This document shows, one piece after another, positions 40,160 to 62,016 of a stretch of 64,000 nucleotides of DNA. Origin of the DNA: Blastocatellia bacterium (GTDB lineage: Bacteria > Acidobacteriota > Blastocatellia > UBA7656); contig CAVXWP010000007.1 in NCBI GenBank assembly GCA_963765495.1, positions 512,001 to 576,000 on the forward strand, in the 5' to 3' direction. Within the stretch, counting starts at the first letter, position 1. Every line of letters starts with the position of its first letter. Both the position numbers and the translations under genes were made by a program. The notes beneath the pieces were generated by a model. The model did not search any database. It worked only from the letters and a program-made list of their open reading frames with translations, and had not been told where the DNA came from.

Positions 40160-40193
40160 GGTCTCCGCTCATATCCGGCGGTTAAACGATCTG

Positions 40194-40235: not shown

Positions 40236-40331
40236 ATTCGAGTCGAAAACCCTTGAGGGGCTTTCTATCTATGCCGCCTCAAAAAGAGCCCAATAAAAAG
40301 CTTTCAACAGGGAAAACCGGGGATTTTCTGC

Positions 40332-40360
40332 TTGACTTAAATTTACGACAAGCATAAATT
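40332..40360 (+). promoter_or_regulatory. Sigma70-type promoter upstream of C25 gene 2
   Basis: TTGACT-17 nt-TAAATT, about 410 nt before the ATG. Confidence 0.55.
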
Positions 40361-40771
40361 AGCCTCCATCAAGGGGAAGCAGTAACCAATTCAGTATGAG
40401 TATTCAAGAGCGAACAAGGGTCTTCTTGCTGAGGGCGGCCTTTCAGCCTCAGCTTACGGGTTGAAGACTAAGACACACCTTATTTTTAGTCGGTCATGAA
40501 AGACCGGCTTGAAGTTTGATTCAACTTAACAATCTGTTTTTGTAAGGCAGCTTTGCGCTGCGCCTGATACGTCAGTTTCTCGTTTTGAGGCTCCGGCTTG
40601 GCATCGGTTTAGCCCGACAGCCACAGGCAACACGCCGGGTGATGATCAGCCGCTGGCCGCGATGTAGAAACTGTATATCGGCGAGTTGGGTGGTGGCGTT
40701 CCTTATCAAATGGGATAGGAGCTAACTGCTAATGAATAACATATCGAGAAGAGATTAATGGAGAGTCCCCA

Positions 40772-47919: not shown

Positions 47920-50900
47920 ATGAGGGTTTCAATAAAGCGCGCAAGGCATTTGGGAAGTCTGGCAATTATTGTTGTTGGATTGGCAGGCTGGCTGGTTTTG
48001 CCGGGACTTTTAGGCCGGGCTACAACATCCGCTCATATCGGCGAACAGGGGTTGTCAAAGGGAGCACAGGTAGAGGCCGGACTCGACCCCCAACGCCAAA
48101 AAGCGCTTGAGAACCTCTATGCTCAATTTACGGCAGGCGCACCTTTTTCAAGAGAGGAATCCAATATCCTGACCAGATTTGGCGCAGGTGAGAAGATATA
48201 CGATCTTGAGGCCGATATAGTAATCTCTCGCGCGCTTTACGCTTATTACATTCTGGGCAAGGCATTGACGCGTGATCAGCAGGTTTTGCTCGACAGGTAC
48301 AGTTCAGCCGTTGCGCACCGAAACACCGATATAGCCGACCTGAAAGAACAGCTACAGCAGCGGCGCAAGGCTGCCGCCGCAAATGCGCCGCCTCGGACGA
48401 CACCCGAAGTTGCGCCCGCAAATGACACCTGCGCAGGCGCTCAGGTTGTTCCCGCCGCCGGGCCGTTTCCTTTTCTGACTACAACCGTCGATATCACCGA
48501 CGCGACAGGCACAAATGAACCGGCGCTCCCTACGTGCACGTCACCGGCATCGCCTCCCGATCCGACCGTTGTCACGCGAGGCGTCTGGTACACCTTTACT
48601 CCGTCAGCGACGGCAACCTACACCCTGGCCACCTGCGCGGAAGCGCCCACCGCTACGACGGTTGACGATACGGTTATGGCAATCTACACCTCCACGGGAG
48701 GTTGCGCCGGTCCGTTCACTCAGTTGGCGAATGATTCCGGGGATATTGACGGGTGTAACGACGACAGTTGCGTCACTTTACAATCATCATTGCAATCGCA
48801 AATAACGACGCGTCTCAATGCGAGCACTACATATTACATCGTGATCTCGCTTTATGGCTCAGACCCACCAATAACGGGCATGACAAATGTCCAGATGAGA
48901 ATTACCAAAGAGAACCCTCCTGTAAATGACACATGCGCGACAGCGCCTTCGCTATCGCTCAATACGCCTGTCACAGGGTCTTTAATAGCAGCGCAAAATG
49001 ATTATCAACTAAATAATTCAGGTTGTTTTTCAGGCGTAGGGCAGACGCCGTCAACCGCAGCGGGTCGCGATGTGGTCTATTCTTTCACAGCGCCTTCGGC
49101 GGGTACCTACTCATTCAGAGTTACAAAATATAACGGCAGCGAGAGCGATCTGGTTATGTATGCCGCAAGCACCTGTCCGGCGGCAACGCCCGGAACCCCT
49201 GTAACCGTTAGCGGTTGTCTGGGCGCATCCAATCGGTTCGTTTCCGATTTCTTTGGAGGCCCATTCTCTTCGGAGGAAATTACTTGTCTTTCGCTTACTG
49301 CGAGCCAGCAGATCTTCATATTCGTAGACCAGGATAGTTTGAGCACGGGCAGCACTTTTACCATCGAAGCGAACCAGTGTGTTCGCGAAACCGAGGCGAA
49401 TAATACTCCTGCCACAGCCAATCCTTTCGTATGCGGTATAGAAGGAAGTATTACTCCGGCAGGAGATGCGGATTTTTATTCTCTGGGGACATTTACGTCC
49501 GGCTCGCGTCTGTTTGCGCTGGTTGATGGCGTGGCCGCCAACGGGGACGATTTCGATCTGCGCGTGACCACAACCACCGACACACTTGAGTACGACGATA
49601 TAGATTCAACCGAAGCCTTTGGCGATAACTCGGGAACCGTTGCGGGTACGCCTCTAACGAGCGCGGCAACGTTTCTGAGGGTGAGCTATTTCGATCCCTC
49701 AACGGCGAGCGAGCCATATCGTGTGTACGCGGCGGTGCAACCTCCAATCGCTTCGGCTACTTCGGAAACCGAGCCGAACAACACAATAGGAACTGCCAAT
49801 TCGGCTGCGAATAACTATTTCACTGGAACGTTGAGCGGCCCGTCGCCATCGACCGATATAGACATCTATAGCTTCACGGGGCAGGCCGGAGACCTGGTAT
49901 TCATCGGTCTGGATGGCGACCCGCTTCGAAACAACACTCCGATCAATGCCAGGCTGGCATTGCTGGACTCGTCCGGCAACTTAATACTTGAAGTCAACAA
50001 CAACAATTCTTTTTCAAATACGACTTCGGGTGCGGGCAGCCTGACATCAACGACACCAAATTCGCCTGCCGAGTCTATCGTATTTCGGGTGATGACAGGA
50101 GGCACTTATTACGCGAGAGTAGCAATTGATTCATTCGCCACCGGAGCGGTTGCAAGCGGAGATTATCTGCTTTCGATAGCAAAGAATTGTACGACAGGCC
50201 CTTCGGTCAGCAATTCAATATCAGGGACGATCTCTTATTGCATCGACAACTCAAAGAAAGTCCCCAACGCCACCGTCCAGACTACCAGCGGTTCCCCTTC
50301 CGCTTCCACTACTACTAACGCCTCCGGCTTCTATCAACTCGATAACCTCGGCACTGGCCCTTACACCGTTGCTCCTTCCAAAACCGGTGCCGTCTCCGGC
50401 ATCTCTGCTCAGGATATCGGTATCCTCCGCCGCCTCGCCGCTGGCATCGATACCCCCACTCCCTGTCAATCCATCGCTGGCGATACAGATAACAACGGCT
50501 CGCTCGGCGCCCAGGACATCGGCTTCCTTCGAAGATTTGTCGCTCAACTTACTACCACTGGCATCACTGGCTCCTGGAAATTCTCTCCCGCCTCTAGGAG
50601 TTATCCCTCGCTTGTTTCAAATCAAACAAACCAGGATTACGATGCCTTGCTGATCGGAGATGTTGACGGCAACTGGACCCCCGCTGCTCCTGATCCTGCT
50701 TCATTTCAGAAGAGTCAGGCTCCTTCGGCCACTAACCTTGCCCTCTCTTTGCCCAGTGTCGTTGCTCCTCCCGGTTCTACTGATGTCTCTATCCCGGTCA
50801 TGGTTAACGGCACTCTCACAAACGGCGATTTCGTTTTGGGCTACACAATCGAGATCAGTTTCGATCCCAGCGTGCTGGTTCCACATTCGCCCTCATTCAA

Positions 50901-53667
50901 CACGACAGGGACGGTCTCATCGACCGGGGTCGTCACAGAGAACACGGGTGTGTCGGGGAGGCTCCGACTTGTGGTCGATTTCCAGAATCCGCTGATATTC
51001 ACAGGGCAGCAGACGCTGATAATATTGAGGTTCGATGTGGTAGGGACACAGGGACAGATGAGCGGGCTCAACTGGTTCTTCACGGAATTTGGGAGCGGCC
51101 CACCTGCCGTCACCACCACGACTACAAACGGCAACTTCACCGTCACAAGCCCCACTGCCGTAAAAGTCGATGCCTTCAAGGCCACGGGCTTTGACAAGGG
51201 CGTATATCTCCAGTGGCAGACCGGGTTTGAATCTACTAACCTCGGCTTCAACATCTATCGCCAGCAGGCGGGCAAACTCTCTCTTGTTACGCCTGAAATA
51301 TTGGCCGGGTCGGCGCTTTTGACAGGTGACACGCCCTTGCTTGCCGGGCGGAAATATTCGTGGTGGGATAATTCACCCGATAGTAAACAGGACGCGCTCT
51401 ATTATCTGGAAGACATTGACCTCAACGGCACAAGGAGCCTGCACGGGCCGATAGTTGCAACCAGAGCATCAGGCAATCCGCCTGCTGGCTCTCGGGCCGA
51501 GTTGTTGAGCCGGATGGGCAGAGGCAAGGCTACAATCAGCGACTACGTCGCTTCCTCCTCCCCTGGCAGCGCCCAACTGGCAACCGTTTCCTCAAAGAAA
51601 GGATTACAAAACTCCAGGCGAGAGACAGTGCCTGTTGATCTGGCGACCTCCTCTGCCATAAAGATGTGGATAGGCAATAGCGGGCTCTATCGCCTCACTC
51701 AGCCGCAACTGCTGAGCGCCGGCCTCGATTCCGGGATAGATCCGCGACTCTTGCAGATGTATGTCGACGGGCAGGAGGTTCCAATCCTTGTCACTGGCCA
51801 GGAGGACGGAAGATTTGATGCCACGGACACAGTGGAATTCTACGCTTCGGCAATCGACAGCCCGTTCACCTCGAAGCGGGTCTACTGGCTTGTGGCAGGG
51901 ACAGTGGCGGGAAGACGGATAACAAAAGTGACGAGTCCCGGGAAGGGGCAGAGCAACGCTAGTTTTACCTCGACCCTGGAGCGACGAGACAAGACGATCT
52001 ACTTTTCGAGTTTGAGGAACGGGGATGAGGAGAACTTCTTTGGGCCGGTCATAGCCTCGCAGGAAGTCGATCAGTCGATAGATGTGAAAGATATGGCAGC
52101 GGGAGGAGGAACTGGGGCAGTGCTTGAAGTGGGATTACAGGGAGTAAGTGCGGTCAACCATCGAGTAAAAGTGAGGTTGAACGGGACGGAGTTGGGAGAG
52201 GTAGATTACAGTGGGCAGGGAGCAGGAGTAGGGAGATTCACACTCTCAAGCGGGCAACTGGTGGAAGGAAGAAACGACATCAAGATGGAGGGGGTGGGAA
52301 CAGGAGGAGATGTGAGCCTGGCCGAGTATGTGAGAGTGAGCTATGAGAGGAGGTACAAGGCGGAAGGAGATGAGTTGAGATTCCGAGCAGAGGGGGGCCA
52401 GGAGGTAAAGATAGGAGGGTTCACAAGCGAACGGATACGAGTATTTGATGTAACGGAGGAAGGGAATGTAGTGGAGATAGGAGGAGCGATAGAAGAGAGC
52501 GGGAACGGGTATGAGATAGGGATCAAGGTAGGAGGAGCAGGAGAGAGAGAGATGATGGCGATAGAGGAAGGGGAGGTGAGAGAGGTAGGAGAGATGAGAA
52601 AGAACGAGGCGTCGAAGCTGAGAGCGACGAGCCAGGGAGCGGACCTGTTGATAATCACGACGGGAGAGATGGGAGGAAGTCTGGAAGGGTTGAAGGCGCT
52701 GAGACAGAGTCAGGGGATGGCGGTAGCGATAGTGAAGGTGGAAGACATCTATGACGAGTTCAGCCAGGGAGAGAAGACGCCGTATGCGATAAGAGAATTT
52801 CTGATATATGCGAAGAGGAACTGGAAGAGGAAGCCGGGATATGTGTTGATGGGAGGGGATGCGAGTTACGACCCGAAGAATTATCTGGGAGCGGGGGAAT
52901 GGGATCTGGTGCCGACGAAGTTGGTGGACACGGCGTATCTGGAGACGGCCTCAGATGAATGGATGGTGGACGAGGATGGAGACGGGATAGGAGAGATGGC
53001 GATAGGGCGACTGCCGATAAGGAGCGAGGAAGAAGGGATGAGGATGGTAGGGAAGATAATGAGTTATGAGAGAGGAGTATCGAGGAGGAGTGTGTTATTG
53101 GTATCGGATGCGAATGATGGATACAACTTTGAGCAGGCGAACGAAGAGTTGAAGGGGATGATACCGAAGGGGACGAGGATAGAAGAGGTAAAGAGGGGGC
53201 AGATGAGCGAGGAGGAAGCGAGGGCGAGGGTGATAGGAGGGATAAACGAAGGGCAGGCGATAGTGAGTTATGCAGGGCACGGGTCGGTGGATATATGGAG
53301 AGGAGAGATATTGAGGAGCGAGGATGGAGAGATAATGAGGAATGGTAATCAGTTGAGTGTATTTCTGATGATGACGTGTTTGAACGGATATTTTGAGGAT
53401 CCGATGTTGGAGAGTTTGGGAGAGGCGATGATGAAGGCGGAGAGGGGAGGAGCGGTAGCGGTATGGGGGTCGAGCGGGATGTGTGAAGCGGGAGAGCAGG
53501 CGGCAGTGAGCAAGGAGATGATGAGGGAGCTAAACAGTGTGGAGGGGTTGACGAAGAAGAAGGTGACGATAGGAGAAGCGGCGAGGAGGGCGAAGGGGAG
53601 GATAGGAGATGTGGATGTAAGGAGGACGTACGTGTTGTTGGGAGACCCGACTATGCGCCTCAGATAA
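47920..53667 (+). CDS. Secreted protein: PxNDTC and ETExNN (PPC-like) repeats + dockerin-like + cohesin-like + Ig-like + C25 peptidase domain (C25-3)
   Basis: GAGGAG RBS; PANDTC/PVNDTC, ETEANN/ETEPNN; GDTDNNGSLGAQD; ISFDPSVL; YAGHG, MTCLNG, LLGDP. Confidence 0.9.
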   Translation: MRVSIKRARHLGSLAIIVVGLAGWLVLPGLLGRATTSAHIGEQGLSKGAQVEAGLDPQRQKALENLYAQFTAGAPFSREESNILTRFGAGEKIYDLEADIVISRALYAYYILGKALTRDQQVLLDRYSSAVAHRNTDIADLKEQLQQRRKAAAANAPPRTTPEVAPANDTCAGAQVVPAAGPFPFLTTTVDITDATGTNEPALPTCTSPASPPDPTVVTRGVWYTFTPSATATYTLATCAEAPTATTVDDTVMAIYTSTGGCAGPFTQLANDSGDIDGCNDDSCVTLQSSLQSQITTRLNASTTYYIVISLYGSDPPITGMTNVQMRITKENPPVNDTCATAPSLSLNTPVTGSLIAAQNDYQLNNSGCFSGVGQTPSTAAGRDVVYSFTAPSAGTYSFRVTKYNGSESDLVMYAASTCPAATPGTPVTVSGCLGASNRFVSDFFGGPFSSEEITCLSLTASQQIFIFVDQDSLSTGSTFTIEANQCVRETEANNTPATANPFVCGIEGSITPAGDADFYSLGTFTSGSRLFALVDGVAANGDDFDLRVTTTTDTLEYDDIDSTEAFGDNSGTVAGTPLTSAATFLRVSYFDPSTASEPYRVYAAVQPPIASATSETEPNNTIGTANSAANNYFTGTLSGPSPSTDIDIYSFTGQAGDLVFIGLDGDPLRNNTPINARLALLDSSGNLILEVNNNNSFSNTTSGAGSLTSTTPNSPAESIVFRVMTGGTYYARVAIDSFATGAVASGDYLLSIAKNCTTGPSVSNSISGTISYCIDNSKKVPNATVQTTSGSPSASTTTNASGFYQLDNLGTGPYTVAPSKTGAVSGISAQDIGILRRLAAGIDTPTPCQSIAGDTDNNGSLGAQDIGFLRRFVAQLTTTGITGSWKFSPASRSYPSLVSNQTNQDYDALLIGDVDGNWTPAAPDPASFQKSQAPSATNLALSLPSVVAPPGSTDVSIPVMVNGTLTNGDFVLGYTIEISFDPSVLVPHSPSFNTTGTVSSTGVVTENTGVSGRLRLVVDFQNPLIFTGQQTLIILRFDVVGTQGQMSGLNWFFTEFGSGPPAVTTTTTNGNFTVTSPTAVKVDAFKATGFDKGVYLQWQTGFESTNLGFNIYRQQAGKLSLVTPEILAGSALLTGDTPLLAGRKYSWWDNSPDSKQDALYYLEDIDLNGTRSLHGPIVATRASGNPPAGSRAELLSRMGRGKATISDYVASSSPGSAQLATVSSKKGLQNSRRETVPVDLATSSAIKMWIGNSGLYRLTQPQLLSAGLDSGIDPRLLQMYVDGQEVPILVTGQEDGRFDATDTVEFYASAIDSPFTSKRVYWLVAGTVAGRRITKVTSPGKGQSNASFTSTLERRDKTIYFSSLRNGDEENFFGPVIASQEVDQSIDVKDMAAGGGTGAVLEVGLQGVSAVNHRVKVRLNGTELGEVDYSGQGAGVGRFTLSSGQLVEGRNDIKMEGVGTGGDVSLAEYVRVSYERRYKAEGDELRFRAEGGQEVKIGGFTSERIRVFDVTEEGNVVEIGGAIEESGNGYEIGIKVGGAGEREMMAIEEGEVREVGEMRKNEASKLRATSQGADLLIITTGEMGGSLEGLKALRQSQGMAVAIVKVEDIYDEFSQGEKTPYAIREFLIYAKRNWKRKPGYVLMGGDASYDPKNYLGAGEWDLVPTKLVDTAYLETASDEWMVDEDGDGIGEMAIGRLPIRSEEEGMRMVGKIMSYERGVSRRSVLLVSDANDGYNFEQANEELKGMIPKGTRIEEVKRGQMSEEEARARVIGGINEGQAIVSYAGHGSVDIWRGEILRSEDGEIMRNGNQLSVFLMMTCLNGYFEDPMLESLGEAMMKAERGGAVAVWGSSGMCEAGEQAAVSKEMMRELNSVEGLTKKKVTIGEAARRAKGRIGDVDVRRTYVLLGDPTMRLR

Positions 53668-53783: not shown

Positions 53784-54608
53784 ATGGAGAAAATTGACCG
53801 CCTGGGCTGGGCGGATGGGATCTCTTTTACCTCCTATGGTGTGCGGATAGGTATTAGAGTAAACAGGACCGAAGCTCTTGAGCGCATAAAAGAGCATTTG
53901 CCTCCGGGATGGAAGTTCTCGCGGGCAAAGATCGTTGATCGGTTGTATTCGCTCATAATTGGCGGCTCGGGAGCGAAGCCTAATGTCCGCCGCTTCAATA
54001 TACTTTATGCCGATCTGTTAAAGATCGCTCGAACGCTCGATCTGGATGCTGTGCTTGATACGCTCGAATCGGATTTGCAGCTTTATGTTGCAGAAGAGGC
54101 GCGTCGGAGAGTCTTTGTGCATGCGGGCGTCGTCGCATGGGACGGGCAGGCCATAGTAATCCCCGGACGCAGCCATTCGGGGAAGACCACTCTGGTGACG
54201 GAATTCGTGCGAGCCGGAGCAGTTTATTATTCGGATGAATATGCAGTACTCGATCAACAGGGGCGCGTCCATCCTTATCCTCGCCCGCTTGGAATAAGGG
54301 AAGGCGACTCCAGCAAACAGACAAAATATCCTGTGGAAGAGATAGGCGGTAGGGCCGGGATTAAGCCCTTGCCAGTTGGAATGGTGGTGGTAAGCAAGTA
54401 TAGAAATGGGGCGCGGTGGCGGCCTCGTAAACTGACTCCCGGGCAGGGGGCGCTGGCTTTACTCGACAATACGGTCTCTGCCCGCAGACAGCCGGAAAAG
54501 GCCCTTTCAGCCTTCAAACACATAGTGCCTCAGGCGGTTGTGCTTAAGGGCGAAAGAGGTGAAGCCAGCGAGGTTGTTAACTCGATATTAACTAGGATAA
54601 TGGCTTGA
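53784..54608 (+). CDS. HPr kinase-related P-loop kinase
   Basis: FVHAGVV, PGRSHSGKTTL, YYSDEYA, PYPRPL. Confidence 0.88.
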   Translation: MEKIDRLGWADGISFTSYGVRIGIRVNRTEALERIKEHLPPGWKFSRAKIVDRLYSLIIGGSGAKPNVRRFNILYADLLKIARTLDLDAVLDTLESDLQLYVAEEARRRVFVHAGVVAWDGQAIVIPGRSHSGKTTLVTEFVRAGAVYYSDEYAVLDQQGRVHPYPRPLGIREGDSSKQTKYPVEEIGGRAGIKPLPVGMVVVSKYRNGARWRPRKLTPGQGALALLDNTVSARRQPEKALSAFKHIVPQAVVLKGERGEASEVVNSILTRIMA

Positions 54609-54625: not shown

Positions 54626-54655
54626 TTGACTTTTTCAGGCATTACGTTGTATAAC
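54626..54655 (+). promoter_or_regulatory. Sigma70-type promoter for the PqqD-peptide gene
   Basis: TTGACT-18 nt-TATAAC, then GGAGAG RBS. Confidence 0.65.
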
Positions 54656-54708: not shown

Positions 54709-55188
54709 ATGAAGAATACAGATCAAGTTTTACCGCTCGCTCGGAAGGACGGACTGGTTGTTCAAGAGTTACCTGATGAAGTATTAATCTATGATTTAGA
54801 TCGACATAAAGCTCATTGCCTCAATCCAACTGCTGCTCTTGTCTGGAATCATTGCGACGGCCAGATGACTATGACCGAGATGATAGGTATCCTGAAGGAA
54901 GAAACACACTCTCCAATAGATGAGGATGTGGTGTGGCTGGCTCTTGATCAATTAGCCAAAACCCATCTGTTATCTGAGCAGGTAATCCGGCCTACAGGAA
55001 GCGGGAAACTCAATCGAAGAGACGTGATGCGACGCATAGGCTGGGCAGCGGCAGTGGCACTTCCACTGGTCACAAGCATCGTCGCCCCATCTGCGGTTCA
55101 GGCCGTGACCTGTAGAGCACCCGGACAACCCTGCACTACAGGCGTGCAATGCTGTTCAGGTGTGTGCAACACTACAACGTGCGCGTAG
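54709..55188 (+). CDS. PqqD/RRE domain fused to a twin-arginine signal and a 6-Cys peptide (putative RiPP precursor)
   Basis: VVQELPDEVLIYD...HCLNPTAALVWNHCDG...ALDQL (PqqD pattern); NRRDVMRR + hydrophobic stretch + AVQA; VTCRAPGQPCTTGVQCCSGVCNTTTCA. Confidence 0.88.
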   Translation: MKNTDQVLPLARKDGLVVQELPDEVLIYDLDRHKAHCLNPTAALVWNHCDGQMTMTEMIGILKEETHSPIDEDVVWLALDQLAKTHLLSEQVIRPTGSGKLNRRDVMRRIGWAAAVALPLVTSIVAPSAVQAVTCRAPGQPCTTGVQCCSGVCNTTTCA

Positions 55189-55257: not shown

Positions 55258-56328
55258 ATGGTCGAGGCCGACGCAGATAATTCACTTGGAGAACAGGTTT
55301 CAGCCGTCCTTACTGGAGCCTGGCGTTGTGATCCTCCTGTTCCCGACTTTTCAGTTCGAGAATTGAGTGAAGTCGCTCCCCTGCTTTTAGGGTCCGGGGG
55401 AGCGGCTTTGGGCTGGTGGCGAGTTCGCCTATCTCATCTTAAAGACTCTCCTGCGGCGCTGGAACTGCAACACGCCTATCGCATTCATACGTTGAATTCC
55501 TTTGTGCACGAACGGGCGATAAAAGAGGTTTTCGCGCTCTTGCGCTCGGCGGGGATCGAGCCTGTGCTCGTTAAAGGCTGGGCGATTGCCCGCCTCTATC
55601 CTGAAAAATGTCTCCGCCCTTACGGAGACCTCGACCTTTGCTTTCGGCCCGAACAATACGAGCAGGCTTCGGATGTGCTGGAGAGTCCCGAGGGCAGGCA
55701 TTACAACGTAGACGCGCACGAAGGGTTTGCCAAACTCGACGATTACAGCGTAGACGAATTGTACAGTCGTTCCGAGTTGATAGCTCTGGATAACATCGAA
55801 GTGCGCGTGTTGGGGCCTGAAGATCATCTTCGCATTCTGTGCGTGCACCTGCTCAGGCATGGGGCGTTTCGGCCTTCGTGGTTGTGCGACATCGCGGTGG
55901 CGCTCGAAAATCGACCCGCCGACTTCGATTGGAATCGATGTCTTGGAAAAGAGACCCGAAAGGCCGGCTGGGTTGTCTCATCGCTCGCTCTTGCCCATAG
56001 ATTACTGGGCGCGAGAGTGGATGATACTCCGGCAGCGGGCGCAAGCGCGCGGCTTCCGTCCTGGCTGGTTGCGCACGTCCTCAAGCAATGGGAAGCCCCC
56101 TATCCGGCGCTCTACCCGCCGATGAGTTATTATCCCCCGTTGATTACTTACTTCCGTCATCCGGCTGGATTTCTGAAGGCTCTTCGCAAGCGATGGCCCG
56201 ACCCGCTTGAGGCTACGATAAGATTGGAAAGACCGATAGATGAAGCCCCGCGGCTCCCTTATCAGATAGGTTATTGTCTCTTGCGATTAAAGAACTTTCT
56301 GGCGAGCCTGCTGAAATCATCCGAATGA
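55258..56328 (+). CDS. Nucleotidyltransferase family protein (NTP_transf_5-like)
   Basis: GIEPVLVKGWAIARLYP...RPYGDLDL, VDAH, LGPEDHL..LCVH, WLCDIA. Confidence 0.88.
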   Translation: MVEADADNSLGEQVSAVLTGAWRCDPPVPDFSVRELSEVAPLLLGSGGAALGWWRVRLSHLKDSPAALELQHAYRIHTLNSFVHERAIKEVFALLRSAGIEPVLVKGWAIARLYPEKCLRPYGDLDLCFRPEQYEQASDVLESPEGRHYNVDAHEGFAKLDDYSVDELYSRSELIALDNIEVRVLGPEDHLRILCVHLLRHGAFRPSWLCDIAVALENRPADFDWNRCLGKETRKAGWVVSSLALAHRLLGARVDDTPAAGASARLPSWLVAHVLKQWEAPYPALYPPMSYYPPLITYFRHPAGFLKALRKRWPDPLEATIRLERPIDEAPRLPYQIGYCLLRLKNFLASLLKSSE

Positions 56329-56441: not shown

Positions 56442-57758
56442 CTAATCTGCCGCGCTTGCCTTCTCCGTGATTATTGATGTCGATTCGAACAGAAGCGACT
56501 GCAAGAGGAGCGAATCGTGGAAGGATGAGTATATATCCTCAAACTCATCCTGCAACTGAGTGGCATATTCTGCCGGATATGATCTTTCGACCTCCTGTTT
56601 TATCTGCTCAATCGAAAGACCCCGCAAAAGGCACCGGAGTATGAACAAACAATCCTCATCGAAGTAGTCCATACCGAGTATATTTGGCTCTGCCGATCCC
56701 AGCACTTTCGTGGTTGAAAACTCCATCACCCAATCGGCAACCGTGTCGACAGAATCCTTTTCGGGAAAGCGTTGCTTGACCAGATCGAGGATCATCTCTC
56801 TTTGCGGCACGTTCAGCAGCAACGCCATAAAGAATCGGTGGTCGCTTTCGGTCAAATAGGCCCTTCGTCTCGACATATTTAACTGTCTCTGGAGTTCGGC
56901 AAAGACCCGGGGAACAATATCCATCAACTGCCCATGCTTGAGGCGGGCCTTTTCGAGCAGCTTATTGAAGCGTTCTCTGCCGGTCGAAAGCTGAAATATG
57001 CGTTCCATCTCGTCGGAGGTCAGGTGTTGAAATGCCGTATAGAGTATCGAAAAAGAGGTGTGAAAATCTGAGTGAGCGATCATCTCACTGATCATGGAAT
57101 CGGCGTCCTGATGCTTCATCCTGAGGAGCAGGGCGGCGCTCTGAACCTTCTTTGTGGATGAGATTTCAGCAAAGAAAGGATTCGAGGCAATATAAGGTTT
57201 CAGATATTCAAACTGCGGCAACACGCCGGGGGTTTGATAGGTTCTGATTGTGATAGTCGTCGATGGTCTGTCAAGATGAAACAGCGAGTGTATGTAGCGG
57301 TCGCCGGGCAATATCTTTCTGATCTGGCCCTTCTTCAGCAACTCGACCTCCTTAAAAACAGTCTGCCCGACCTGAAGATGAGAGTTTATCTCAACCTCCC
57401 GGTTGAATCCGTACTGGCTGTGGATGCTCGACCCGGAGAGCACCTGAAAGGCCCCTGAAAAGGCGTGCTGATGGATGCTTGTGGTTCCATCGAGCCAGTA
57501 ATAGATATCTATATAAAACCGTGGTCCGCTATAGAGCGTGATCGGGGGGTCGCCGAAACGGGCGTCAATGTCTTGCTGCGGAGGAATCTGTATGGCTTTG
57601 CCAAGCCACTCGATTATGTTCCAGGGGTCGACCTGCTCGCTCGGATTGGTTTCGGCGAGCGCCTGCGCAGCAATGTCGGGGAATATATCTTCGTTATAAT
57701 TTTTGTCTCTCCATCGCTGTTCTACAAGCGATCCGAGTCTCTGAAAAAAGTCCATCAT
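56442..57758 (-). CDS. Cupin-fold (cysteine-dioxygenase-like) metalloprotein with helical C-terminal domain
   Basis: YYWLDGTTSIHQHAFSGAFQVLSG ... YIHSLFH; GGAGG RBS. Confidence 0.7.
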   Translation of the reverse strand: MMDFFQRLGSLVEQRWRDKNYNEDIFPDIAAQALAETNPSEQVDPWNIIEWLGKAIQIPPQQDIDARFGDPPITLYSGPRFYIDIYYWLDGTTSIHQHAFSGAFQVLSGSSIHSQYGFNREVEINSHLQVGQTVFKEVELLKKGQIRKILPGDRYIHSLFHLDRPSTTITIRTYQTPGVLPQFEYLKPYIASNPFFAEISSTKKVQSAALLLRMKHQDADSMISEMIAHSDFHTSFSILYTAFQHLTSDEMERIFQLSTGRERFNKLLEKARLKHGQLMDIVPRVFAELQRQLNMSRRRAYLTESDHRFFMALLLNVPQREMILDLVKQRFPEKDSVDTVADWVMEFSTTKVLGSAEPNILGMDYFDEDCLFILRCLLRGLSIEQIKQEVERSYPAEYATQLQDEFEDIYSSFHDSLLLQSLLFESTSIITEKASAAD

Positions 57759-57886: not shown

Positions 57887-58295
57887 TTTTCGCGCTTTAG
57901 GTTTCCGAACAAGATGAGGTCGCCAGGAGCGATCAGGGGTGCAGATAAGATCAAAGCTTTTGGAGAAGTATTGTTCGTCTCACCTTAGGAAGCGCGCGCG
58001 GAGAAATCCAGGAAAATTGAAGAGAATGGAGACTCGCAGATTGTGCTTGTCTGTCGAGCGTCCTTGATGATTCCAGAATTTGCTCGTAACATCTCAGCAT
58101 CAAACTCCCCCTTAAGAACTCATAAGGATGCTGTTTTGACAAACTGAATTGCCGTCGTGTCGGCTTCCCTCGCGGGCTTACCTTTCAAAGGGCGTAGCCT
58201 GCTCAAAACGCCGCAATACGAAGGGTAATTTTCGACTGCCCCCAGGCCCGGCCCATTCGATCAATGATCAGGTTCCTCAGGAAATCGTAATACTA

Positions 58296-59582
58296 ATGAC
58301 CCTGGAAATATCTCTAAAAAAGGCGACAGCCAGGATTGCCCTGATGGGGGCCGCCGCCGCTTTGTTTTGTCTGCTTTCCGTATTGATAATTTCCAATTTC
58401 ATTACGGGAATAATGGCCGACGAGCGTATCAAGGTGAATCGCGGGCTTCTGGCCTCGACAATCATATATTTTCCGAATTCGGCCCGTTTGCAGGCCCGGC
58501 TTGCGCAGGTTGAGCTGGCGGAGCCTGACCGCGATCTTTCCGTAGCCGAAGCTCACGCCCGGCGTGCAATCGCGCTTTTGCCGGATAATTACAAGCCCCG
58601 GCTTTTACTTGCTTCAATCGAAGAATTGAAGGGGGATCGCGACTCCGCCGAGCTCTCCTTGCGCGAGGCGGTTCGGCTCGCACCACACAATCGAGAGGTC
58701 CACTACCGACTGGCTAATCTGCTGCTGAGAGAAGGCAAACTTGACGAATCGGTTGAAGAGTTTCGCCTGACGACCGAAGCCAATCCCTCTCTTCTTCCCG
58801 CGACGCTCGATCTCGTATGGCGGGCCACGGGTGGCGATACGGAAGCGGTGAAAAAGATCGCGGGCACAGATGTGAAAGCGAGGCTCGCGCTCGCTCAATT
58901 TCTCGTCAATCAATCGCGCGCAGATGACGCGGCAACGGTTTTCGACGGCCTCGACCGCTCGACGCAGATGGATGCGCCAGAGACCGCTCCTTTCCTCAAT
59001 TCGCTCATCGCAAAGGGGGAGGGAGGGGTTGCGCGAAGGATTTGGGGTGAATTGCTGGGAGGCAGCCGCACAGGCGCGCTCGTTTCAAACGGCGGATTTG
59101 AAGACGACATCCTCAAGAACTTCGATCAATTCGACTGGGCTATTTCGCGCAGCGAATACGCACGCATTCTTATAGACACTCGCCTGGCGCACGGCGGGAC
59201 GCGTTCGCTTAAGATAGATTTCACAGGCCGGGATACGACCCGACTCGATAACGAGATTCGCCAGCTTGTAATGGTCAACGCGGGAGTCCGATACAGATTG
59301 GAGTGCTACGCAAGAACAGAGGAGCTTGTCACGCCCGAAGGACCGCGCGTGGTTGTGACAGACAAGTCGAACAACTGGCTGGCCTCTTCCGCGCCCCTTG
59401 CTTCGGGGACGAGCGACTGGCAGCGAATCGCGATTGAGTTTGCCGCTCCATCAGGCGACATAGGGGATAAACCCGGCGGGCAGATGGTTTACATCTCGAT
59501 CAAACGAAAGCCTGAATTCAGCTATGACGATCCTACACGGGGAAGCGTCTGGTTTGACGATTTCTTAATCAGTAGGCAGTAG
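58296..59582 (+). CDS. Membrane-anchored TPR + carbohydrate-binding (CBM4/9-like) protein
   Basis: N-terminal TM, TPRs (AVRLAPHN...YRLANLLLREG), LVSNGGFE...VWFDDF. Confidence 0.8.
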   Translation: MTLEISLKKATARIALMGAAAALFCLLSVLIISNFITGIMADERIKVNRGLLASTIIYFPNSARLQARLAQVELAEPDRDLSVAEAHARRAIALLPDNYKPRLLLASIEELKGDRDSAELSLREAVRLAPHNREVHYRLANLLLREGKLDESVEEFRLTTEANPSLLPATLDLVWRATGGDTEAVKKIAGTDVKARLALAQFLVNQSRADDAATVFDGLDRSTQMDAPETAPFLNSLIAKGEGGVARRIWGELLGGSRTGALVSNGGFEDDILKNFDQFDWAISRSEYARILIDTRLAHGGTRSLKIDFTGRDTTRLDNEIRQLVMVNAGVRYRLECYARTEELVTPEGPRVVVTDKSNNWLASSAPLASGTSDWQRIAIEFAAPSGDIGDKPGGQMVYISIKRKPEFSYDDPTRGSVWFDDFLISRQ

Positions 59583-59705
59583 GCAGTAGGCAGTTATAGG
59601 AATCGGGTACCAACTACTCATATTCATATCCGGCTTCTACCTCTATCTGATCCGGTTTAACTTGATTTACCGCTTTATAACTGCCTACTGCCTACTGCCT
59701 ACTGC
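59570..59705. repeat. Inverted heptamer arrays (AGGCAGT)n ... (ACTGCCT)n
   Basis: Arrays at 59570-59594 and 59680-59705. Confidence 0.88.
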
Positions 59706-59722
59706 TTATAGCGGCTCTGATT

Positions 59723-60910
59723 GTGATCGGCCTTGCGCAGAGCGTGGCATTTACGGACGGCGACGGCCGCAGGGTGAGCCTCTCGATGAATGTAGATGCT
59801 ACTCGCCCGGCGGTGATGGTGATGTTTTTTCTGCTGGTTTCGTTTATAATTGCTCGGAACTTTGTTGCTACACGCGAGCGGGTAGGTTCACTGGCCAGCT
59901 TCCTCGTATTCTACGGACTGGCCATGTCGGTATTTGCGCTGATTCAACATTTTGCCTGGGATGGTCGGTTCTATTGGTTGAGGCCGACCGATCAGGGAAC
60001 GGTATTCGGACCGTTTGTCAATCGCAATCACTATGCCGGCTACATAGAGATGCTGGCCCCGATTCCGGTTGCGCTCATAATCACTCGCGGCGTGAGCCGG
60101 GAATCGTGGGCGCTCTACGGTTTTGCAGCCGCGATCATGGGTATATCGGTGATTGTTACCCTCTCGCGAGGAGGCACAATCAGCCTAATCTCAGGAATGG
60201 TGTTTCTGGCGATTGCGAGCGCCCGGCTCAATAAAAGGAACGAAGGTAAAACAGTGACGGACGCAAAAGCGCCTGCAAAACGGCACTTTTCATCCTTCAA
60301 GCGCGTCGGGGTTGTTGCTTTCATCAGTATTGCGGTCCTTGCGGGCGTGATCTGGATAGGAGCCGAAGCGGTTCTGAATCGCGCGGTCGAGACTCTGAAT
60401 ACGGTTCGGAAAAGCGAAACTCAGATCCTGAGCCGCACAGGGATTTGGAAAGATACGTGGGCGATGATTCGCGCCAATCCGGTTATGGGAGTAGGTATCG
60501 GCGCTTACGAAGCAGTTTACCCTATGTATGGTCGCGGCGACGGCACTATGATAGTAGATTATGCGCACAATGATTATTTGCAGGTGCTCTCGGATACGGG
60601 CATCATTGGCGGATTTGTCGCGCTCTGTTTCCTCGGGCTGATCTTTCGCGCGATCAGGCGAGGGGCTGAAAATAATGATCCTCTTCTGAGAGGAGCAGCG
60701 CTTGGCGGCGGCGCGTCCATTTTTTCGATCCTCGTTCATAGTTTATTTGACTTCAATCTGCAAATACCATCTAATGCTTTGCTGTTTCTGGTTCTTGCTG
60801 CCGTGGTCTCGTCAGTCGGCGCGCTTGAAGGCGCGAGCGAACTGACGAAGGCGGGGCAGCCGGCTGTCGCGATTGATACGACCGGCCTTCATACAGGAGT
60901 ACGATCATGA
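59723..60910 (+). CDS. O-antigen ligase/Wzy_C family membrane protein (5' end unclear)
   Basis: GPFVNRNHYAGY, TLSRGG, RTGIW, PVMGVGIG, AHNDYLQ, HSLFDFNL. Confidence 0.88.
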   Translation: MIGLAQSVAFTDGDGRRVSLSMNVDATRPAVMVMFFLLVSFIIARNFVATRERVGSLASFLVFYGLAMSVFALIQHFAWDGRFYWLRPTDQGTVFGPFVNRNHYAGYIEMLAPIPVALIITRGVSRESWALYGFAAAIMGISVIVTLSRGGTISLISGMVFLAIASARLNKRNEGKTVTDAKAPAKRHFSSFKRVGVVAFISIAVLAGVIWIGAEAVLNRAVETLNTVRKSETQILSRTGIWKDTWAMIRANPVMGVGIGAYEAVYPMYGRGDGTMIVDYAHNDYLQVLSDTGIIGGFVALCFLGLIFRAIRRGAENNDPLLRGAALGGGASIFSILVHSLFDFNLQIPSNALLFLVLAAVVSSVGALEGASELTKAGQPAVAIDTTGLHTGVRS

Positions 60911-62016
60911 GATTTAGAACTGAAAGAATGCCGACACAAGTTTTCCGGTTATTTGTTTTGTCAGTAATTTTGTTTGCGCCCGCAGGCGGCATATCCTTTT
61001 CTCAACAGCGCGAGCACCCTCAGCAGATGCGGCCCCCGTCTCAGTCGATCACCGATCCCCTGCCTGCGCCAAGCATCCTTGTCTCTCCCGACGAGGATTA
61101 CCGCATAGGCCCGGCCGATGTGATCGAGATACAGATAGAGGATGCGCCGGAGCTTTCTAATACCTGGCGCGTGAGCGCAAACGGCACCGTCTCGATGCCT
61201 TATCTGGATAGCGTGAAGGCGGAAGGCAAGTCGCCCGTGGAGCTTGAGAAATTCATAGCCGACGGATTGCGCGGTCGCTATTTGAAAGACCCGCAGGTCC
61301 ACGTTCTGGTCAAACAGATCAACAGCCGGTCATTTTTTATTCAAGGTTCTGTTCGGCGTCCGGGCGTATATCAGATAGAGGGTCGCCCGTCGCTGCTAAA
61401 GCTCATCACAGTCGCCGGAGGACTGGCCGACAGTCATGGCTCTACCGCTTTCATCATCAGCGAGAAAAAGCCAAAGAGAGACGAAGGCGCAGAAACCGTT
61501 GATGCGGCTCCGGCAAAAGAGATATTGCAGACATCCGGGCAGAGATCCGACGGTAAGATTGAAAATGCTGATGCAGGCGCGGATTATGATCTCAAGACCG
61601 TAAACATCAGCGGGTTGCTCAGAGGCCGTTTCAATCAGAACATGTATCTTGATCCCGGAGATATAGTAAATATCCCGCCGCTCGATGTCTTTTTCGTGGC
61701 GGGCGAAGTAAACGCGCCGGGGTCGTTTCCCCTGAAAGAAGGCACGACCTTGCGGCAGGCGGTCTCTCTGGCTCAAGGCACGACTTTCAATGCTGCCGGA
61801 AGCGAGGGAGTCATCTTCCGCGAAGACCTGGCCACCGGGCAGCGCAACGAAATCAAGGTTGATATCGGCGAAGTTATGAGAGGCAAAAAGGAAGATATAC
61901 AGATACAGGCAAACGATATAATCATAGTCCCAAACAGCCGGTTCAAATCCGTAGGCAACGCATTGCTCAGGGCCTTCGGACTCGGAACGGCTCAACGCGG
62001 GCCTTATCGTTATTGA
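60907..62016 (+). CDS. Polysaccharide export protein (Wza/OPX, SLBB repeats)
   Basis: YRIGPADVIEI, VSANGTVSMPY, YLKDPQV, GSVRRPG, GEVNAPG. Confidence 0.92.
   Translation: MRFRTERMPTQVFRLFVLSVILFAPAGGISFSQQREHPQQMRPPSQSITDPLPAPSILVSPDEDYRIGPADVIEIQIEDAPELSNTWRVSANGTVSMPYLDSVKAEGKSPVELEKFIADGLRGRYLKDPQVHVLVKQINSRSFFIQGSVRRPGVYQIEGRPSLLKLITVAGGLADSHGSTAFIISEKKPKRDEGAETVDAAPAKEILQTSGQRSDGKIENADAGADYDLKTVNISGLLRGRFNQNMYLDPGDIVNIPPLDVFFVAGEVNAPGSFPLKEGTTLRQAVSLAQGTTFNAAGSEGVIFREDLATGQRNEIKVDIGEVMRGKKEDIQIQANDIIIVPNSRFKSVGNALLRAFGLGTAQRGPYRY

Follow-up and report, generated by a model that had tools for sequence, protein, structure and literature searches.

RiPP recognition elements (RREs) such as PqqD and the B1 proteins of lasso peptide systems occur either as discrete proteins or as parts of enzymes, and the precursor that they bind is a separate molecule. 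According to a 2025 RRE survey, 21% of the PF05402 proteins exceed the length of discrete RREs without having another Pfam domain, and these were left unanalysed there. In the lasso systems of paeninodin and pseudomycoidin, as reviewed, an HPr-kinase homologue phosphorylates the precursor and a nucleotidyltransferase then glycosylates it. FecR, a class V twin-arginine translocation (Tat) substrate, is described in a review as a folded N-terminal domain followed by an internal Tat signal and an exported C-terminal domain, and this placing of the signal is limited there to the FecR-type class.

The window analysed here, a stretch of 64,000 nucleotides of contig CAVXWP010000007.1 from a Blastocatellia bacterium, contains an open reading frame, PQK, whose RRE is, in contrast to the known ones, fused upstream of a signal and a Cys-rich peptide. 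The features of this gene are:

54709..55188, + strand: whole ORF (PQK), ATG start, 159 aa, with RRE domain, internal Tat-like signal and six-Cys tail
54709..54993, + strand: PqqD-type RiPP recognition element, residues 1-95 (Pfam PqqD, AF2, Foldseek; rough dN/dS 0.10)
54994..55011, + strand: variable linker, residues 96-101 (majority-residue frequency 0.24; rough dN/dS 0.27, taken over residues 91-100/101)
55012..55104, + strand: twin-arginine-type signal, residues 102-132 (RR motif, h-region, -3/-1 site; rough dN/dS 0.07)
55105..55185, + strand: 27-aa tail, residues 133-159, C-x6-C-x5-CC-x3-C-x4-C, predicted inhibitor-cystine-knot mini-protein
54626..54655, + strand: TTGACT-18 nt-TATAAC, with hexamers at 54626-54631 and 54650-54655, no better than chance

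The ORF was verified in the window sequence as first described, and is preceded by GGAG at 54700-54703, 5 nt before the ATG. As read from the sequence, the existence of the ORF, its PqqD domain, the signal stretch and the Cys spacing of the tail are far above chance, and the three-part composition proposed in the preliminary description was confirmed by the sequence, by Pfam and by 1483 relatives. These analyses suggest that PQK joins a peptide-binding chaperone domain, a mid-chain export signal and a spider-toxin-like six-cysteine mini-protein, all of them predicted. The claim that the gene has its own TTGACT/TATAAC promoter was not supported: the hexamers are present, but a scan of positions 53600-56500 gave 3 promoter-like sites, compared to 2.6 +/- 1.7 in shuffled sequence. 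The TTGACT/TATAAC pair itself was missing from the scan list because the scan accepts a second hexamer only when it ends in T. A search of sequencing runs listed no RNA run for PQK and one soil-metagenome DNA run. Judged by titles and abstract openings, the layout was undescribed in the literature on RRE/PqqD combined with knottin, cysteine-rich, twin-arginine or Blastocatellia; no paper was found for PqqD with cysteine-rich and Acidobacteria, or for 'HprK-related kinase'. Look-ups of terms in two RRE-Finder papers brought up nothing on such a layout, and their supplementary tables may list members.

The Pfam PqqD model (PF05402) matched residues 24-75 (E=5.4e-7; 30.3 bits, exceeding the cut-off of 23.4), and was found at E<=1e-3 in 106/106 aligned relatives. 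The AF2 model of this region showed strands at residues 16-20, 25-29 and 34-38, followed by helices at 40-47, 55-66 and 72-84, with a pLDDT of 82-89 in the first model and of 93-98 with the deep alignment. The top Foldseek match of the predicted domain was TbiB1 (5v1v_A; TM 0.75 on target, E=5.2e-4), and the best matches were lasso B1 RREs, PqqD, and the RRE domains of TigE, ThcOx, sactipeptide synthases and NisB. The AF2 model and the Foldseek matches thus both present the three-strand, three-helix (winged-helix-like) RRE fold, and the assignment of residues 1-95 to an RRE, made earlier from the sequence pattern, was upheld by the Pfam match above cut-off, the AF2 model and the similarity to TbiB1. 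Within the signal segment, the AF2 models placed a beta strand at residues 121-124/125, and with the deeper alignment the pLDDT of residues 101-130 rose from 54-66 to 77-80 and the pTM from 0.64 to 0.75. The strand and the rise in pLDDT suggest, as a hint from modelling, that the signal segment docks within PQK. A complex prediction of the RRE (1-95) against residues 96-159 with 106-row alignments, run without controls, scored 0.30 against a mark of 0.32 and weighs neither for nor against such docking.

Residues 102-132, NRRDVMRRIGWAAAVALPLVTSIVAPSAVQA, are similar to a twin-arginine signal that ends in a site for signal peptidase, and comprise N-R-R-D-V-M-R-R, the h-region IGWAAAVALPLVTSIV, and Pro, Val and Ala at -6, -3 and -1 of the putative cleavage site. 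The twin Arg, hydrophobic core and AxA-type site noted in the preliminary description recur across the family: RR followed by at least 13 uncharged residues was found in 152/153 proteins, position -1 is A/S/G in 99/106 relatives, position -3 is A/V/S/I/L in 97/106, and Pro stands at -6 in 102/106. In the set of 153 proteins, S/T/N precedes the RR and R/K stands at +5, giving the family motif [S/T/N]RR[E/D/Q][L/V/A/M][V/I/L/M][R/K]; in 48/106 relatives, RR and the first Cys are 32 residues apart. The segment therefore has the parts of a Tat signal, namely an S/T-R-R-x-F-L-K-like motif, an h-region and an A-x-A-type site, from which cleavage by signal peptidase I after Ala132 is suggested; its position is not N-terminal, since a folded domain precedes the RR (residues 103-104). 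The Tat model TIGR01409 scored 14.9-15.1 bits on the window protein, under the curated cut-off of 16.7, and 13.3-15.4 bits in 4/5 proteins tested. When all six frames of the 7.3-Mb genome were scanned with this model, 47 hits were obtained, 23 of them above cut-off; two of the three PQK paralogues were among the 47 (ranks 30 and 33) and the third was absent from them. The genome encodes TatC in one copy (219 bits). By hand calculation the h-region has a mean Kyte-Doolittle value of about 2.1; at this fairly high hydrophobicity, the Sec route or a membrane anchor is possible instead of Tat. The uncharged stretch runs from Gly111 to Val133 (23 residues), and its h-region is broken by two Pro and by Thr-Ser, with no continuous helix there in the AF2 models. 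The residues preceding the first tail Cys are A-[A/V]-[S/T/N], which the lipobox pattern does not accommodate, and a lipoprotein reading was rejected on this basis. The internal Tat signal of FecR, as reviewed, is a precedent that the preliminary description did not mention.

The tail, VTCRAPGQPCTTGVQCCSGVCNTTTCA, carries six Cys in the C-C-CC-C-C knottin framework, together with 6 Thr and 1 Ser; both this composition and the spacing C-x6-C-x5-CC-x3-C-x4-C at 55105-55185 were read from the sequence exactly as had been reported. Its pLDDT was 82-88, and 92-95 with the deeper alignment. With model 1, Foldseek aligned the tail locally to 5fzv (rmsd 0.5 A over 25 columns, 40% identity) and to 1hvw (0.8 A), at a whole-chain E of about 0.9; with model 2, no knottin structures were among the top 50 matches. 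The PQK family profile matched the spider venom peptides 5fzw/5fzv (U3-SYTX-Sth1h/a) with E=0.015/0.024, and G-x-P-C and CC-x-G-x-C are common to these peptides and the PQK tails. The tail of the window protein passed no Pfam cut-off (Toxin_29, 19.1 vs 25). Among the relatives, UPF0506 was found at E<=1e-3 in 10/106 and Omega-toxin in 3/106; the four relatives scanned singly (P0005, P0009, P0013, P0043) were all above the UPF0506 cut-off, and P0005 passed both UPF0506 (25.1/23.2) and Omega-toxin (23.5/22). The earlier comparison to knottins was thus supported in silico by AF2 and Foldseek with model 1, by the family profile and by the relatives passing these cut-offs. Of 152 proteins, 147 have an even number of tail Cys, 2 an odd number and 3 none, as would suit export and disulfide pairing; the most frequent number is six (76/152), so that tail Cys numbers are not multiples of four, and 96/152 proteins have six or ten. 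The predicted fold suggests that the tail is an inhibitor cystine knot mini-protein, in which the six Cys would form the disulfides.

At E<=1e-3, the 1483 relatives of PQK (87-279 aa) matched over near full length. The best 120 share 55-67% identity with it, in almost every case across 89-100% of the length, and the relatives come mainly from Blastocatellia/Pyrinomonadaceae records; representative clusters were covered for the best 150 of 6200. NCBI labels relatives as 'PqqD family peptide modification chaperone'. Both Arg, Pro119, VTS, Pro127, Ala132 and the six tail Cys are invariant in 26 aligned relatives. The majority-residue frequency was 0.63 in the RRE, 0.65 in the h-region, 0.69 in the c-region, 0.24 in the linker and 0.39 in the non-Cys positions of the tail. 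The dN/dS values, which are rough because dS is near saturation (about 0.9-1.8), were 0.10 for the RRE, 0.07 for the signal, 0.27 for the linker and 0.35 for the non-Cys tail; the whole-tail value of 0.19 indicates purifying selection, and the signal is the most constrained segment of PQK. Judged by these alignments, the conservation of the signal segment far exceeds the needs of a generic signal. Tail length and pattern vary across the wider family, where the expectation of a conserved RRE and RR region with variable Cys tails was met; among close relatives it was not, the tail being fairly conserved there. A profile search with the C-terminal half returned only 25 short proteins, nearly all of them N-truncated fragments of the full form, and a single-sequence search found no free-standing signal+knottin genes. 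P0276 (68 aa) and P0285 (67 aa, with a degraded tail) are possibly RRE-less forms. Within the family, as far as its sequences go, the RRE-signal-tail fusion is the rule.

The neighbourhood of PQK in the window consists of:

53784..54608, + strand: 274-aa P-loop kinase related to HprK, immediately upstream of PQK (TIGR04352 HprK_rel_A)
55258..56328, + strand: 356-aa protein of the NTP_transf_5 nucleotidyltransferase family, immediately downstream of PQK (PF14907, E=2.6e-28)
47920..53667, + strand: giant secreted protein of 1915 aa, ending in a Peptidase_C25 domain at residues 1577-1914 (PF01364, E=1.6e-74)
35003-40159, + strand: giant C25 gene, 1718 aa, C25 domain at C7:551149-552153 (window 39149-40153)
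40772-46825, + strand: giant C25 gene, 2017 aa, C25 domain at C7:557818-558819 (window 45818-46819)
56442..57758, - strand: conserved hypothetical protein, 438 aa, without Pfam or NCBIfam family, of uncertain membership in the system
58149..62016, + strand: exopolysaccharide genes (PrsT-like TPR protein, Wzy_C O-antigen-ligase-like protein, Wza-like Poly_export/SLBB protein)

The kinase matched TIGR04352 with E=2.8e-16 and 59.4 bits, under the cut-off of 200, and neither it nor the nucleotidyltransferase had useful sequence relatives in the PDB. An HprK-like kinase adjoins 37/89 PQK family genes and an NTP_transf_5 gene 47/89, and the knottin consensus is the same with or without them, no tail differences being seen between the two kinds of loci; the proposed recruitment of the flanking enzymes by the RRE is thus not supported. 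The C-terminal residue of the tail is not conserved as Ser across the family. The steadiest partner is the C25 gene, which lies at most two genes away from 51/89 family genes, and in 21/89 a C25 neighbour is present without an adjacent kinase or nucleotidyltransferase. C25-PQK units are found repeated in tandem, and the two further giant C25 genes of the window (35003..46825) are arranged in tandem. The Peptidase_C25 giant just upstream of PQK was missing from the preliminary description. TPR, Wzy_C and Poly_export genes also adjoin PQK relatives in many loci, FecR-domain genes are present in 15/82 loci, and the 438-aa hypothetical follows the nucleotidyltransferase gene in 4/82; it belongs to cluster 21, and in Atlas to unnamed clusters. 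Neither a B2 protease nor a lasso cyclase was among the window neighbours scanned or the ten annotated recurrent neighbour clusters (82 loci), and a lasso peptide cluster was rejected for the missing B2 and C genes. No radical-SAM or other tailoring enzyme besides the kinase and nucleotidyltransferase was seen among the neighbours scanned or clustered, nor were other small precursor genes seen near PQK. A 43-aa ORF between PqqD and kinase in L089 was considered as a hidden precursor and rejected, as L090 has nothing similar.

As a whole, the earlier interpretation, in which a precursor with a built-in RRE recruits the flanking enzymes and releases an exported knottin, is partly supported. The explanation that we prefer, tentatively and with somewhat less than even confidence, is that PQK is a pre-pro-knottin whose RRE and signal form a leader handled in the cytoplasm, with the tail exported and cut off after Ala132. 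The order would be pro-signal-mature, an unusual pre-pro-peptide, in which residues 1-95, with their predicted PqqD-type fold, would be kept in the cytoplasm, while residues 102-132, judged by their motifs and conservation, would act as an internal Tat-type signal that inserts as a hairpin and carries the tail over the cytoplasmic membrane. On the same grounds, signal peptidase I would cleave after Ala132, so that RRE and signal make up one leader of 132 residues, and the tail would be oxidised outside the cytoplasm into a three-disulfide inhibitor cystine knot of the predicted fold. Since the signal is as conserved as the RRE, has an invariant P-x-V-T-S...P and is under the strongest purifying selection, we infer a specific recognition of this segment ahead of export, with docking as a strand on PQK's own RRE as the likeliest form. 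The layout would suit a RiPP precursor, with a leader bound by an RRE and the core at the C-terminus. Such docking would hold the precursor, which the kinase and NTP_transf_5 enzyme may receive in loci having them, and the released knottin may partner the co-transcribed giant Peptidase_C25 extracellularly as inhibitor, cofactor or substrate. A bolder extension, which we consider unlikely, is that the RRE clamps itself on P-x-V-T-S-I-V-A-P and delays Tat export until the kinase and NTP_transf_5 enzyme have acted, that the knottin is a dedicated extracellular inhibitor or activator of C25, that its likeness to spider omega-toxins reflects shared ancestry or deep convergence, and that soil Blastocatellia hold thousands of such knots.

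FecR, in which an internal Tat signal has been described before, is uncleaved, and an anchored, uncleaved PQK is therefore a serious rival. PQK might be a bitopic membrane protein of the FecR ('class V' Tat) type with a cytoplasmic RRE, a membrane span at residues 111-132 and the knottin tethered on the outer face, serving as a tethered C25 inhibitor or receptor, or as a transmembrane adaptor that conveys an outside event to the inner peptide-binding domain; this reading is somewhat unlikely, but is the main rival. The 23 uncharged residues from Gly111 to Val133 are long enough for a membrane span, the conservation of the hydrophobic segment is more typical of a functional transmembrane helix than of a signal peptide, the tight C25 linkage suits a protease partner at the membrane, and FecR-domain genes occur in 15/82 loci. 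Against anchoring, the c-region is nearly perfect for signal peptidase I (99/106, 97/106 and 102/106 at -1, -3 and -6), the first Cys stands 3 residues past Ala132 and leaves no linker between membrane and knot, and the h-region, with its two Pro and Thr-Ser, is not a continuous helix in AF2. The latter models also show segment 101-130 packed on the rest of the chain and not as a free helix, which, along with the sub-threshold Tat score, would suit a PQK that stays in the cytoplasm with the hydrophobic segment as an RRE-bound strand and the Cys tail binding metal. This is very improbable: six or ten Cys (96/152) misfit Cys4 sites, both the sequence and the predicted fold of the tail resemble those of secreted disulfide knots, and the family conserves RR motif, h-region and AxA site jointly.

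It is also quite unlikely, if less remote than a metal-binding tail, that PQK is a trans-acting RRE chaperone of a kinase/nucleotidyltransferase/C25 pathway whose substrate lies elsewhere, for example in a segment of the C25 giant, with signal and tail as a lineage-specific add-on for placing or regulating it. Elsewhere among the acidobacterial families, PqqD is found as a discrete protein of ~100 aa that lacks RR, signal and tail; its gene has an HprK-like kinase and a C25 gene as neighbours in G117 and G174, and immediately follows a C25 gene in G129, so that the RRE may serve another substrate; the window kinase and RRE are distantly related to the NCBIfam HPr-rel-A pair, where PqqD is separate, and the NCBI name of the relatives likewise speaks of a chaperone. 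This reading is opposed by the in-frame even-Cys tail in 147/152 relatives and its dN/dS of 0.19, a rough value, and by the 21/89 genes with a C25 neighbour and neither enzyme adjacent, so that the fusion protein functions without kinase or nucleotidyltransferase nearby. Further small precursor genes were not seen either, the candidate ORF of L089 being absent in L090. A division into two products, with a classical 53-aa pre-peptide (MRRIGW...) started internally at Met107 (ATG at 55027) and the full-length protein supplying the RRE in trans, has very little probability. An RRE-less 53-aa ORF with the same start position does exist in L086, from a genome of the same family (4032-4193; stop 13 codons upstream), and start-capable codons are present at position 106 in 62/89 and at position 107 in 47/89 genes, but the start is not conserved (Met107 in 28/106) and short free-standing forms are rare, the 25 short matches being nearly all fragments. 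The RR Arg codons have no enrichment of AGG/AGA that might form a ribosome-binding site, and this double use of the codons was rejected.

To our knowledge, inhibitor-cystine-knot mini-proteins have hitherto been a hallmark of animals, plants and fungi. If PQK is indeed a pre-pro-knottin, there would be a large bacterial family of such knots, with the 132-residue leader as a genetic handle and thousands of tail variants as scaffolds. RiPP logic would gain a recognition element built into its substrate, and a cleavable internal Tat signal behind a folded domain would join Tat biology. The pairing with C25 would be a first lead on the role and control of the abundant acidobacterial giant peptidases, and the treatment of 'long PqqD proteins' in genome mining, 21% of PF05402 in the survey, would change.

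Compared to the known systems, PQK shares with discrete RREs (PqqD and lasso B1 proteins, e.g. TbiB1) the Pfam family and the predicted fold, and the lasso B1 proteins, its best structural matches, have been solved with their leader peptides. In 5v1v and 6jx3 the leader pairs with strand beta3 of the RRE, to which residues 34-38 correspond in PQK. Kinase, PqqD-like protein and nucleotidyltransferase lie side by side in the window, likewise recalling HPr-rel-A (TIGR04352 kinase and TIGR04353 PqqD) and the lasso tailoring pair. The HPr-rel-A cut-offs were, however, not reached (kinase 59 vs 200; PqqD 17-21 vs 35 in four relatives tested), and the TIGR04353 PqqD model gave no hit for the window protein. 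As reviewed, lasso kinases target a C-terminal Ser, whereas PQK tails have no conserved C-terminal Ser and their loci no lasso machinery. The part order and predicted topology of PQK are those of FecR-type class V Tat substrates; the FecR signal is described as non-cleaved and is followed by a large sensor domain, whereas the c-region of PQK has a conserved -3/-1 site and a knot passenger of 27 aa.

The C-C-CC-C-C framework with like spacing is shared by PQK with spider U3-scytotoxins, the omega-atracotoxin family and O-superfamily conotoxins, and its predicted backbone is within 0.5-0.8 A of animal ICK toxins over 25 columns (model 1). PQK and conotoxin precursors both have a variable mature part behind a conserved pre-pro part, but animal ICK toxins are ordered signal-pro-mature and the bacterial PQK pro-signal-mature, with the RRE as the predicted pro part. 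In the staphopain/staphostatin system a cysteine peptidase is co-transcribed with a dedicated partner, and the small PQK gene similarly comes directly after a cysteine peptidase gene of the same orientation and has been duplicated together with it. Unlike staphopain, the peptidase next to PQK belongs to clan CD, family C25, and ends secreted proteins of 1000-2000 aa, and its PQK partner is predicted to be exported.

The open reading frame PQK, whose product joins an RRE domain, an internal Tat-like signal and a six-cysteine tail, had been preliminarily described as a candidate RiPP precursor with a built-in RRE, which would be exported by Tat as a modified knottin. The sequence details of that description were all correct, including the Asn102-Ala132 stretch as written. 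PQK is flanked by genes of an HprK-related kinase and of an NTP_transf_5 nucleotidyltransferase, and lies downstream of large secreted proteins ending in a Peptidase_C25 domain (C25 giants):

35003-40159, forward strand: first of three tandem C25 giants, secreted, 1718 aa, terminal Peptidase_C25
40772-46825, forward strand: second C25 giant, secreted, 2017 aa, terminal Peptidase_C25
47920-53667, forward strand: third C25 giant, secreted, 1915 aa, directly upstream of the kinase; the last 340 residues are Peptidase_C25 (E=1.6e-74)
53784-54608, forward strand: HprK-related kinase, 274 aa, upstream of PQK (TIGR04352 E=2.8e-16, far under the model's cut-off)
54709-55188, forward strand: PQK, 159 residues, with GGAG 5 nt 5' of the ATG
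55105-55185, forward strand: PQK tail, 27 residues, C-x6-C-x5-CC-x3-C-x4-C, with six Thr and one Ser
55258-56328, forward strand: NTP_transf_5 protein, 356 aa, downstream of PQK (PF14907 E=2.6e-28)
56442-57758, reverse strand: hypothetical protein, 438 aa, downstream, without Pfam or NCBIfam family

Exopolysaccharide genes (TPR, Wzy_C, Poly_export) are also found downstream of PQK, and the genes that precede position 33.9 kb of the window have unrelated housekeeping roles. Gene neighbourhoods were analysed at 82 loci, of which 79 were fetched and the other three are the PQK loci of the window's genome, the window included; together they hold 89 family genes. The 438-aa hypothetical comes after the nucleotidyltransferase gene in four of these loci (the window, L030, L032 and L038), and its Atlas clusters are unnamed and come from Acidobacteriota and Verrucomicrobiota.

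The window PQK passed the Pfam PqqD cut-off. AlphaFold2 modelling with 26 relatives yielded a domain of three strands and three helices (pLDDT 82-89), and with 106 relatives the RRE reached pLDDT 93-98 (model mean 89.7, pTM 0.75). The top Foldseek matches were lasso-peptide B1 proteins whose solved structures include their leaders, TbiB1 (5v1v_A) showing a TM of 0.75 on the target and E-values of 1.6e-3 and 5.2e-4 with the two PQK models. PqqD and RRE domains from TigE, TruD/ThcOx, sactipeptide synthases and NisB followed. Within the RRE, His36, Cys37 (54817-54819, in K-A-H-C-L-N) and Cys49 (54853-54855, in H-C-D-G) do not vary among 26 close relatives, and both cysteines are kept in at least 90% of 106 relatives.

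With a threshold of E<=1e-3, a word-indexed search revealed 1483 proteins. Its best 120 matches had lengths of 142-170 aa and identities of 55-67% and, with few exceptions, were near-full-length, the named ones being 'PqqD family peptide modification chaperone' of Blastocatellia or Pyrinomonadaceae. Exhaustive search of representative clusters gave 6200 at E<=1e-3, the weaker of which will include plain PqqD proteins, 3966 at 1e-10 and 325 at 1e-30. A search of species-representative genomes confirmed 298 stretches, and the 79 loci fetched were nearly all titled Blastocatellia, Pyrinomonadaceae or Acidobacteriota. An even sample of the phylum (301 genomes) contained a match at E<=1e-10 in 35 genomes; within the same class 14 of the 26 sampled genomes had one, and elsewhere a handful of full-length ones occurred. 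The window's genome carries three copies: the second (161 aa) adjoins a C25 gene, while the third (P0272; G000:C2; locus L085, 8497-9090, reverse strand) has 197 aa, a 10-Cys tail of about 60 residues and kinase and nucleotidyltransferase genes on its flanks, with no C25 gene within the 17-kb stretch.

Fusion of RRE, signal and tail is the rule in the family, and a search with the C-terminal half returned only 25 short proteins, nearly all of them fragments starting inside the RRE. A clear case of an RRE-less ORF, of 53 aa, in a same-family genome (L086, 4032-4193, forward strand; G221:C3) starts at the equivalent of Met107 and contains the second basic pair, the h-region, AQA and a knottin with six cysteines; its start is preceded by a stop, 13 codons away, and by a 923-aa ORF. 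This ORF represents either an independent precursor or the remnant of a gene in decay.

Residue conservation and dN/dS were compared along the protein as follows.

Constraint along PQK (dN/dS from 30 independent pairs; values are rough, dS being near saturation)
RRE: majority-residue frequency 0.63; dN/dS 0.10
Linker: majority-residue frequency 0.24; dN/dS 0.27
RR region: majority-residue frequency 0.55
h-region: majority-residue frequency 0.65
c-region: majority-residue frequency 0.69
Signal as a whole (102-132): dN/dS 0.07
Tail, all positions: majority-residue frequency 0.51; dN/dS 0.19
Tail, non-Cys positions: majority-residue frequency 0.39; dN/dS 0.35

No other part of PQK is as constrained as the signal segment, which would not be expected of a generic signal peptide and is the main reason for proposing that this segment is specifically recognised. 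The survey of signals and tails comprised 153 proteins (the best 150 of the 6200 cluster representatives and the genome's three copies), and 152 of them have an RR with 13 or more uncharged residues after it. The RR was preceded by S, T or N in 139 and followed by E, D or Q at +1, hydrophobic residues at +2 and +3 and R or K at +4 (131/153), a pattern that matches the Tat consensus in shape. Among the 106 aligned rows, the predicted cut site had A, S or G at -1 in 99, A, V, S, I or L at -3 in 97 and Pro at -6 in 102, and in 48 rows RR and the first Cys were 32 residues apart.

The PQK signal departs from formal Tat criteria in two respects, position and score. The NCBIfam Tat-signal model gave 13.3-15.4 bits in four of five proteins tested, narrowly missing the cut-off of 16.7, and when all six frames of the entire 7.3-Mb genome, which encodes TatC, were scanned, it gave 47 matches at E<=10 (23 above cut-off), among which the window PQK ranked 33 and one of its two paralogues 30, the third copy being absent from the 47. 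Codons able to start translation (ATG/GTG/TTG) are common near the RR: of the 89 genes, 47 have one at codon 101, 62 at codon 106 and 47 at codon 107 (window 55009-55029 for these codons). For part of the family, initiation inside the gene could conceivably create a classical N-terminal signal.

The tail was modelled with pLDDT 82-88 from 26 relatives and 92-95 from 106. With model 1, Foldseek superposed it on the spider knottins 5fzv (rmsd 0.5 A, 25 columns, 40% identity) and 1hvw (0.8 A), a conotoxin also being among the matches; the whole-chain E-values were poor (0.9-1.9), as expected since only 25 residues matched, and these hits were missing from the top 50 with model 2. Independently of structure, the family profile matched the spider venom peptides U3-SYTX-Sth1h (E=0.015) and Sth1a (E=0.024), with the six cysteines, G-x-P-C and CC-x-G-x-C in register in the U3-SYTX alignment. 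Among the 106 relatives, Pfam matches at E<=1e-3 were UPF0506 in 10 and Omega-toxin in 3; in single scans, four of four relatives passed the UPF0506 cut-off and the relative P0005 also that of Omega-toxin, and the window tail passed no Pfam cut-off (Toxin_29, 19.1 vs 25). The knottin (ICK) consensus is kept among close relatives of the window PQK. The expectation of a conserved RRE and RR with variable tails held at family scale: among 152 proteins, tails span about 20-100 residues (extremes 6 and 158) and carry 2 to 14 cysteines; 147 have an even number, 2 an odd number and 3 none, six being commonest. As counts are even and six is commonest, disulfides fit better than Cys4 metal sites.

Genomic context analyses revealed, as lower bounds because an antisense ORF displaced the family gene from the gene call in three loci, a C25 giant at most two genes away from 51 of the 89 PQK genes, an adjacent nucleotidyltransferase in 47, an adjacent kinase in 37 and both in 29; 11 had none of the three within two genes, three of these lying at a contig start. 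The following layouts recur:

C25 > kinase > PQK > nucleotidyltransferase > TPR > Wzy > Wza, as in the window
GT4-Wzy-TPR-FecR-TPR > kinase > PQK > nucleotidyltransferase > C25 > C25
C25 > PQK alone, gaps 17-58 nt, adjoined by unrelated Lon/Hsp20 genes on the other strand
tandem C25 > PQK units, two or three

The minimal unit is therefore C25 and PQK, and the tail consensus is unchanged with or without kinase and nucleotidyltransferase. C25 occurs in 131 of the 301 sampled genomes (including the unpublished G152), and the window's genome has 11 C25 domains versus three PQK genes, so the pairing is not one-to-one. In the FecR layout (L015, L019, L022-L025, L029, L030, L032, L033, L044, L051, L059 and L074), two TPR genes just upstream of kinase and PQK enclose the gene of a FecR-domain protein (about 215 aa), which is of interest because the published case of an internal Tat signal is FecR.

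Three genomes of other acidobacterial families carry a discrete PqqD of about 100 aa that lacks signal and tail. In G117 (L089) and G174 (L090) it adjoins C25 and an HprK-like kinase (389-404 aa, Hpr_kinase_C under cut-off); in G129 (L088) it directly follows a C25 gene and precedes an ATP-sulfurylase/APS-kinase gene. The link between RRE, kinase and C25 thus extends beyond the fusion. The complete fusion, with an 8-Cys tail, also occurs outside the class in G059, where a C25 gene directly precedes it. Relatives in G028 (L093, 918-1733, forward strand) and G199 (L092, 1671-2681, forward strand) combine RRE, RR and h-region with other tails, one Cys-free, of about 19 residues and rich in Ser/Thr/Gly/Pro after an A-x-A-type site, the other with two Cys and then a long polar stretch.

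What the computation shows is the three-part architecture, its conservation, its likeness to Tat signals and knottins and its gene linkage. In the route proposed, the RRE would remain in the cytoplasm, the internal signal would take the tail out, signal peptidase I would cleave after Ala132 and the tail would form three disulfides outside. Export of the tail is probable, and Tat is slightly favoured over Sec. An internal signal behind a folded domain is feasible, given that a recent Tat review defines a class of just this topology (FecR), albeit an uncleaved one, and given the Rieske papers. Cleavage of PQK is rather likely. Residues 121-124/125 were modelled as a strand, and with the deeper alignment the confidence for residues 101-130 increased from 54-66 to 77-80; the models faintly hint that the RRE may bind its own signal. 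Recognition of the leader by its own RRE is possible, if doubtful, and tailoring by kinase and nucleotidyltransferase more doubtful still. The whole chain, counted right if export, cleavage and leader role hold, stands a little short of even chances.

According to reviews, lasso-peptide homologues of the HPr kinase and nucleotidyltransferase phosphorylate and then glycosylate a C-terminal Ser of the precursor, whereas PQK lacks this target, its last residue being mostly Ala, Val, Thr or Leu. The locus is not a lasso cluster, as no B2 or C gene was present among the scanned neighbours in the window or in the ten annotated recurrent neighbour clusters of the 82 loci; by library cut-offs, the locus is not a member of the NCBIfam HPr-rel-A system. 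Full-text searches on this architecture and term look-ups in RRE papers gave no description of a protein that joins an RRE to a signal peptide and a cystine-knot peptide, though supplementary files could list family members. Each part of PQK is of a known kind, and the combination is undescribed in the literature searched. The family falls in a class that a 2025 RRE survey leaves unexplained, the 21% of PF05402 members that exceed a discrete RRE in length yet have no second domain.
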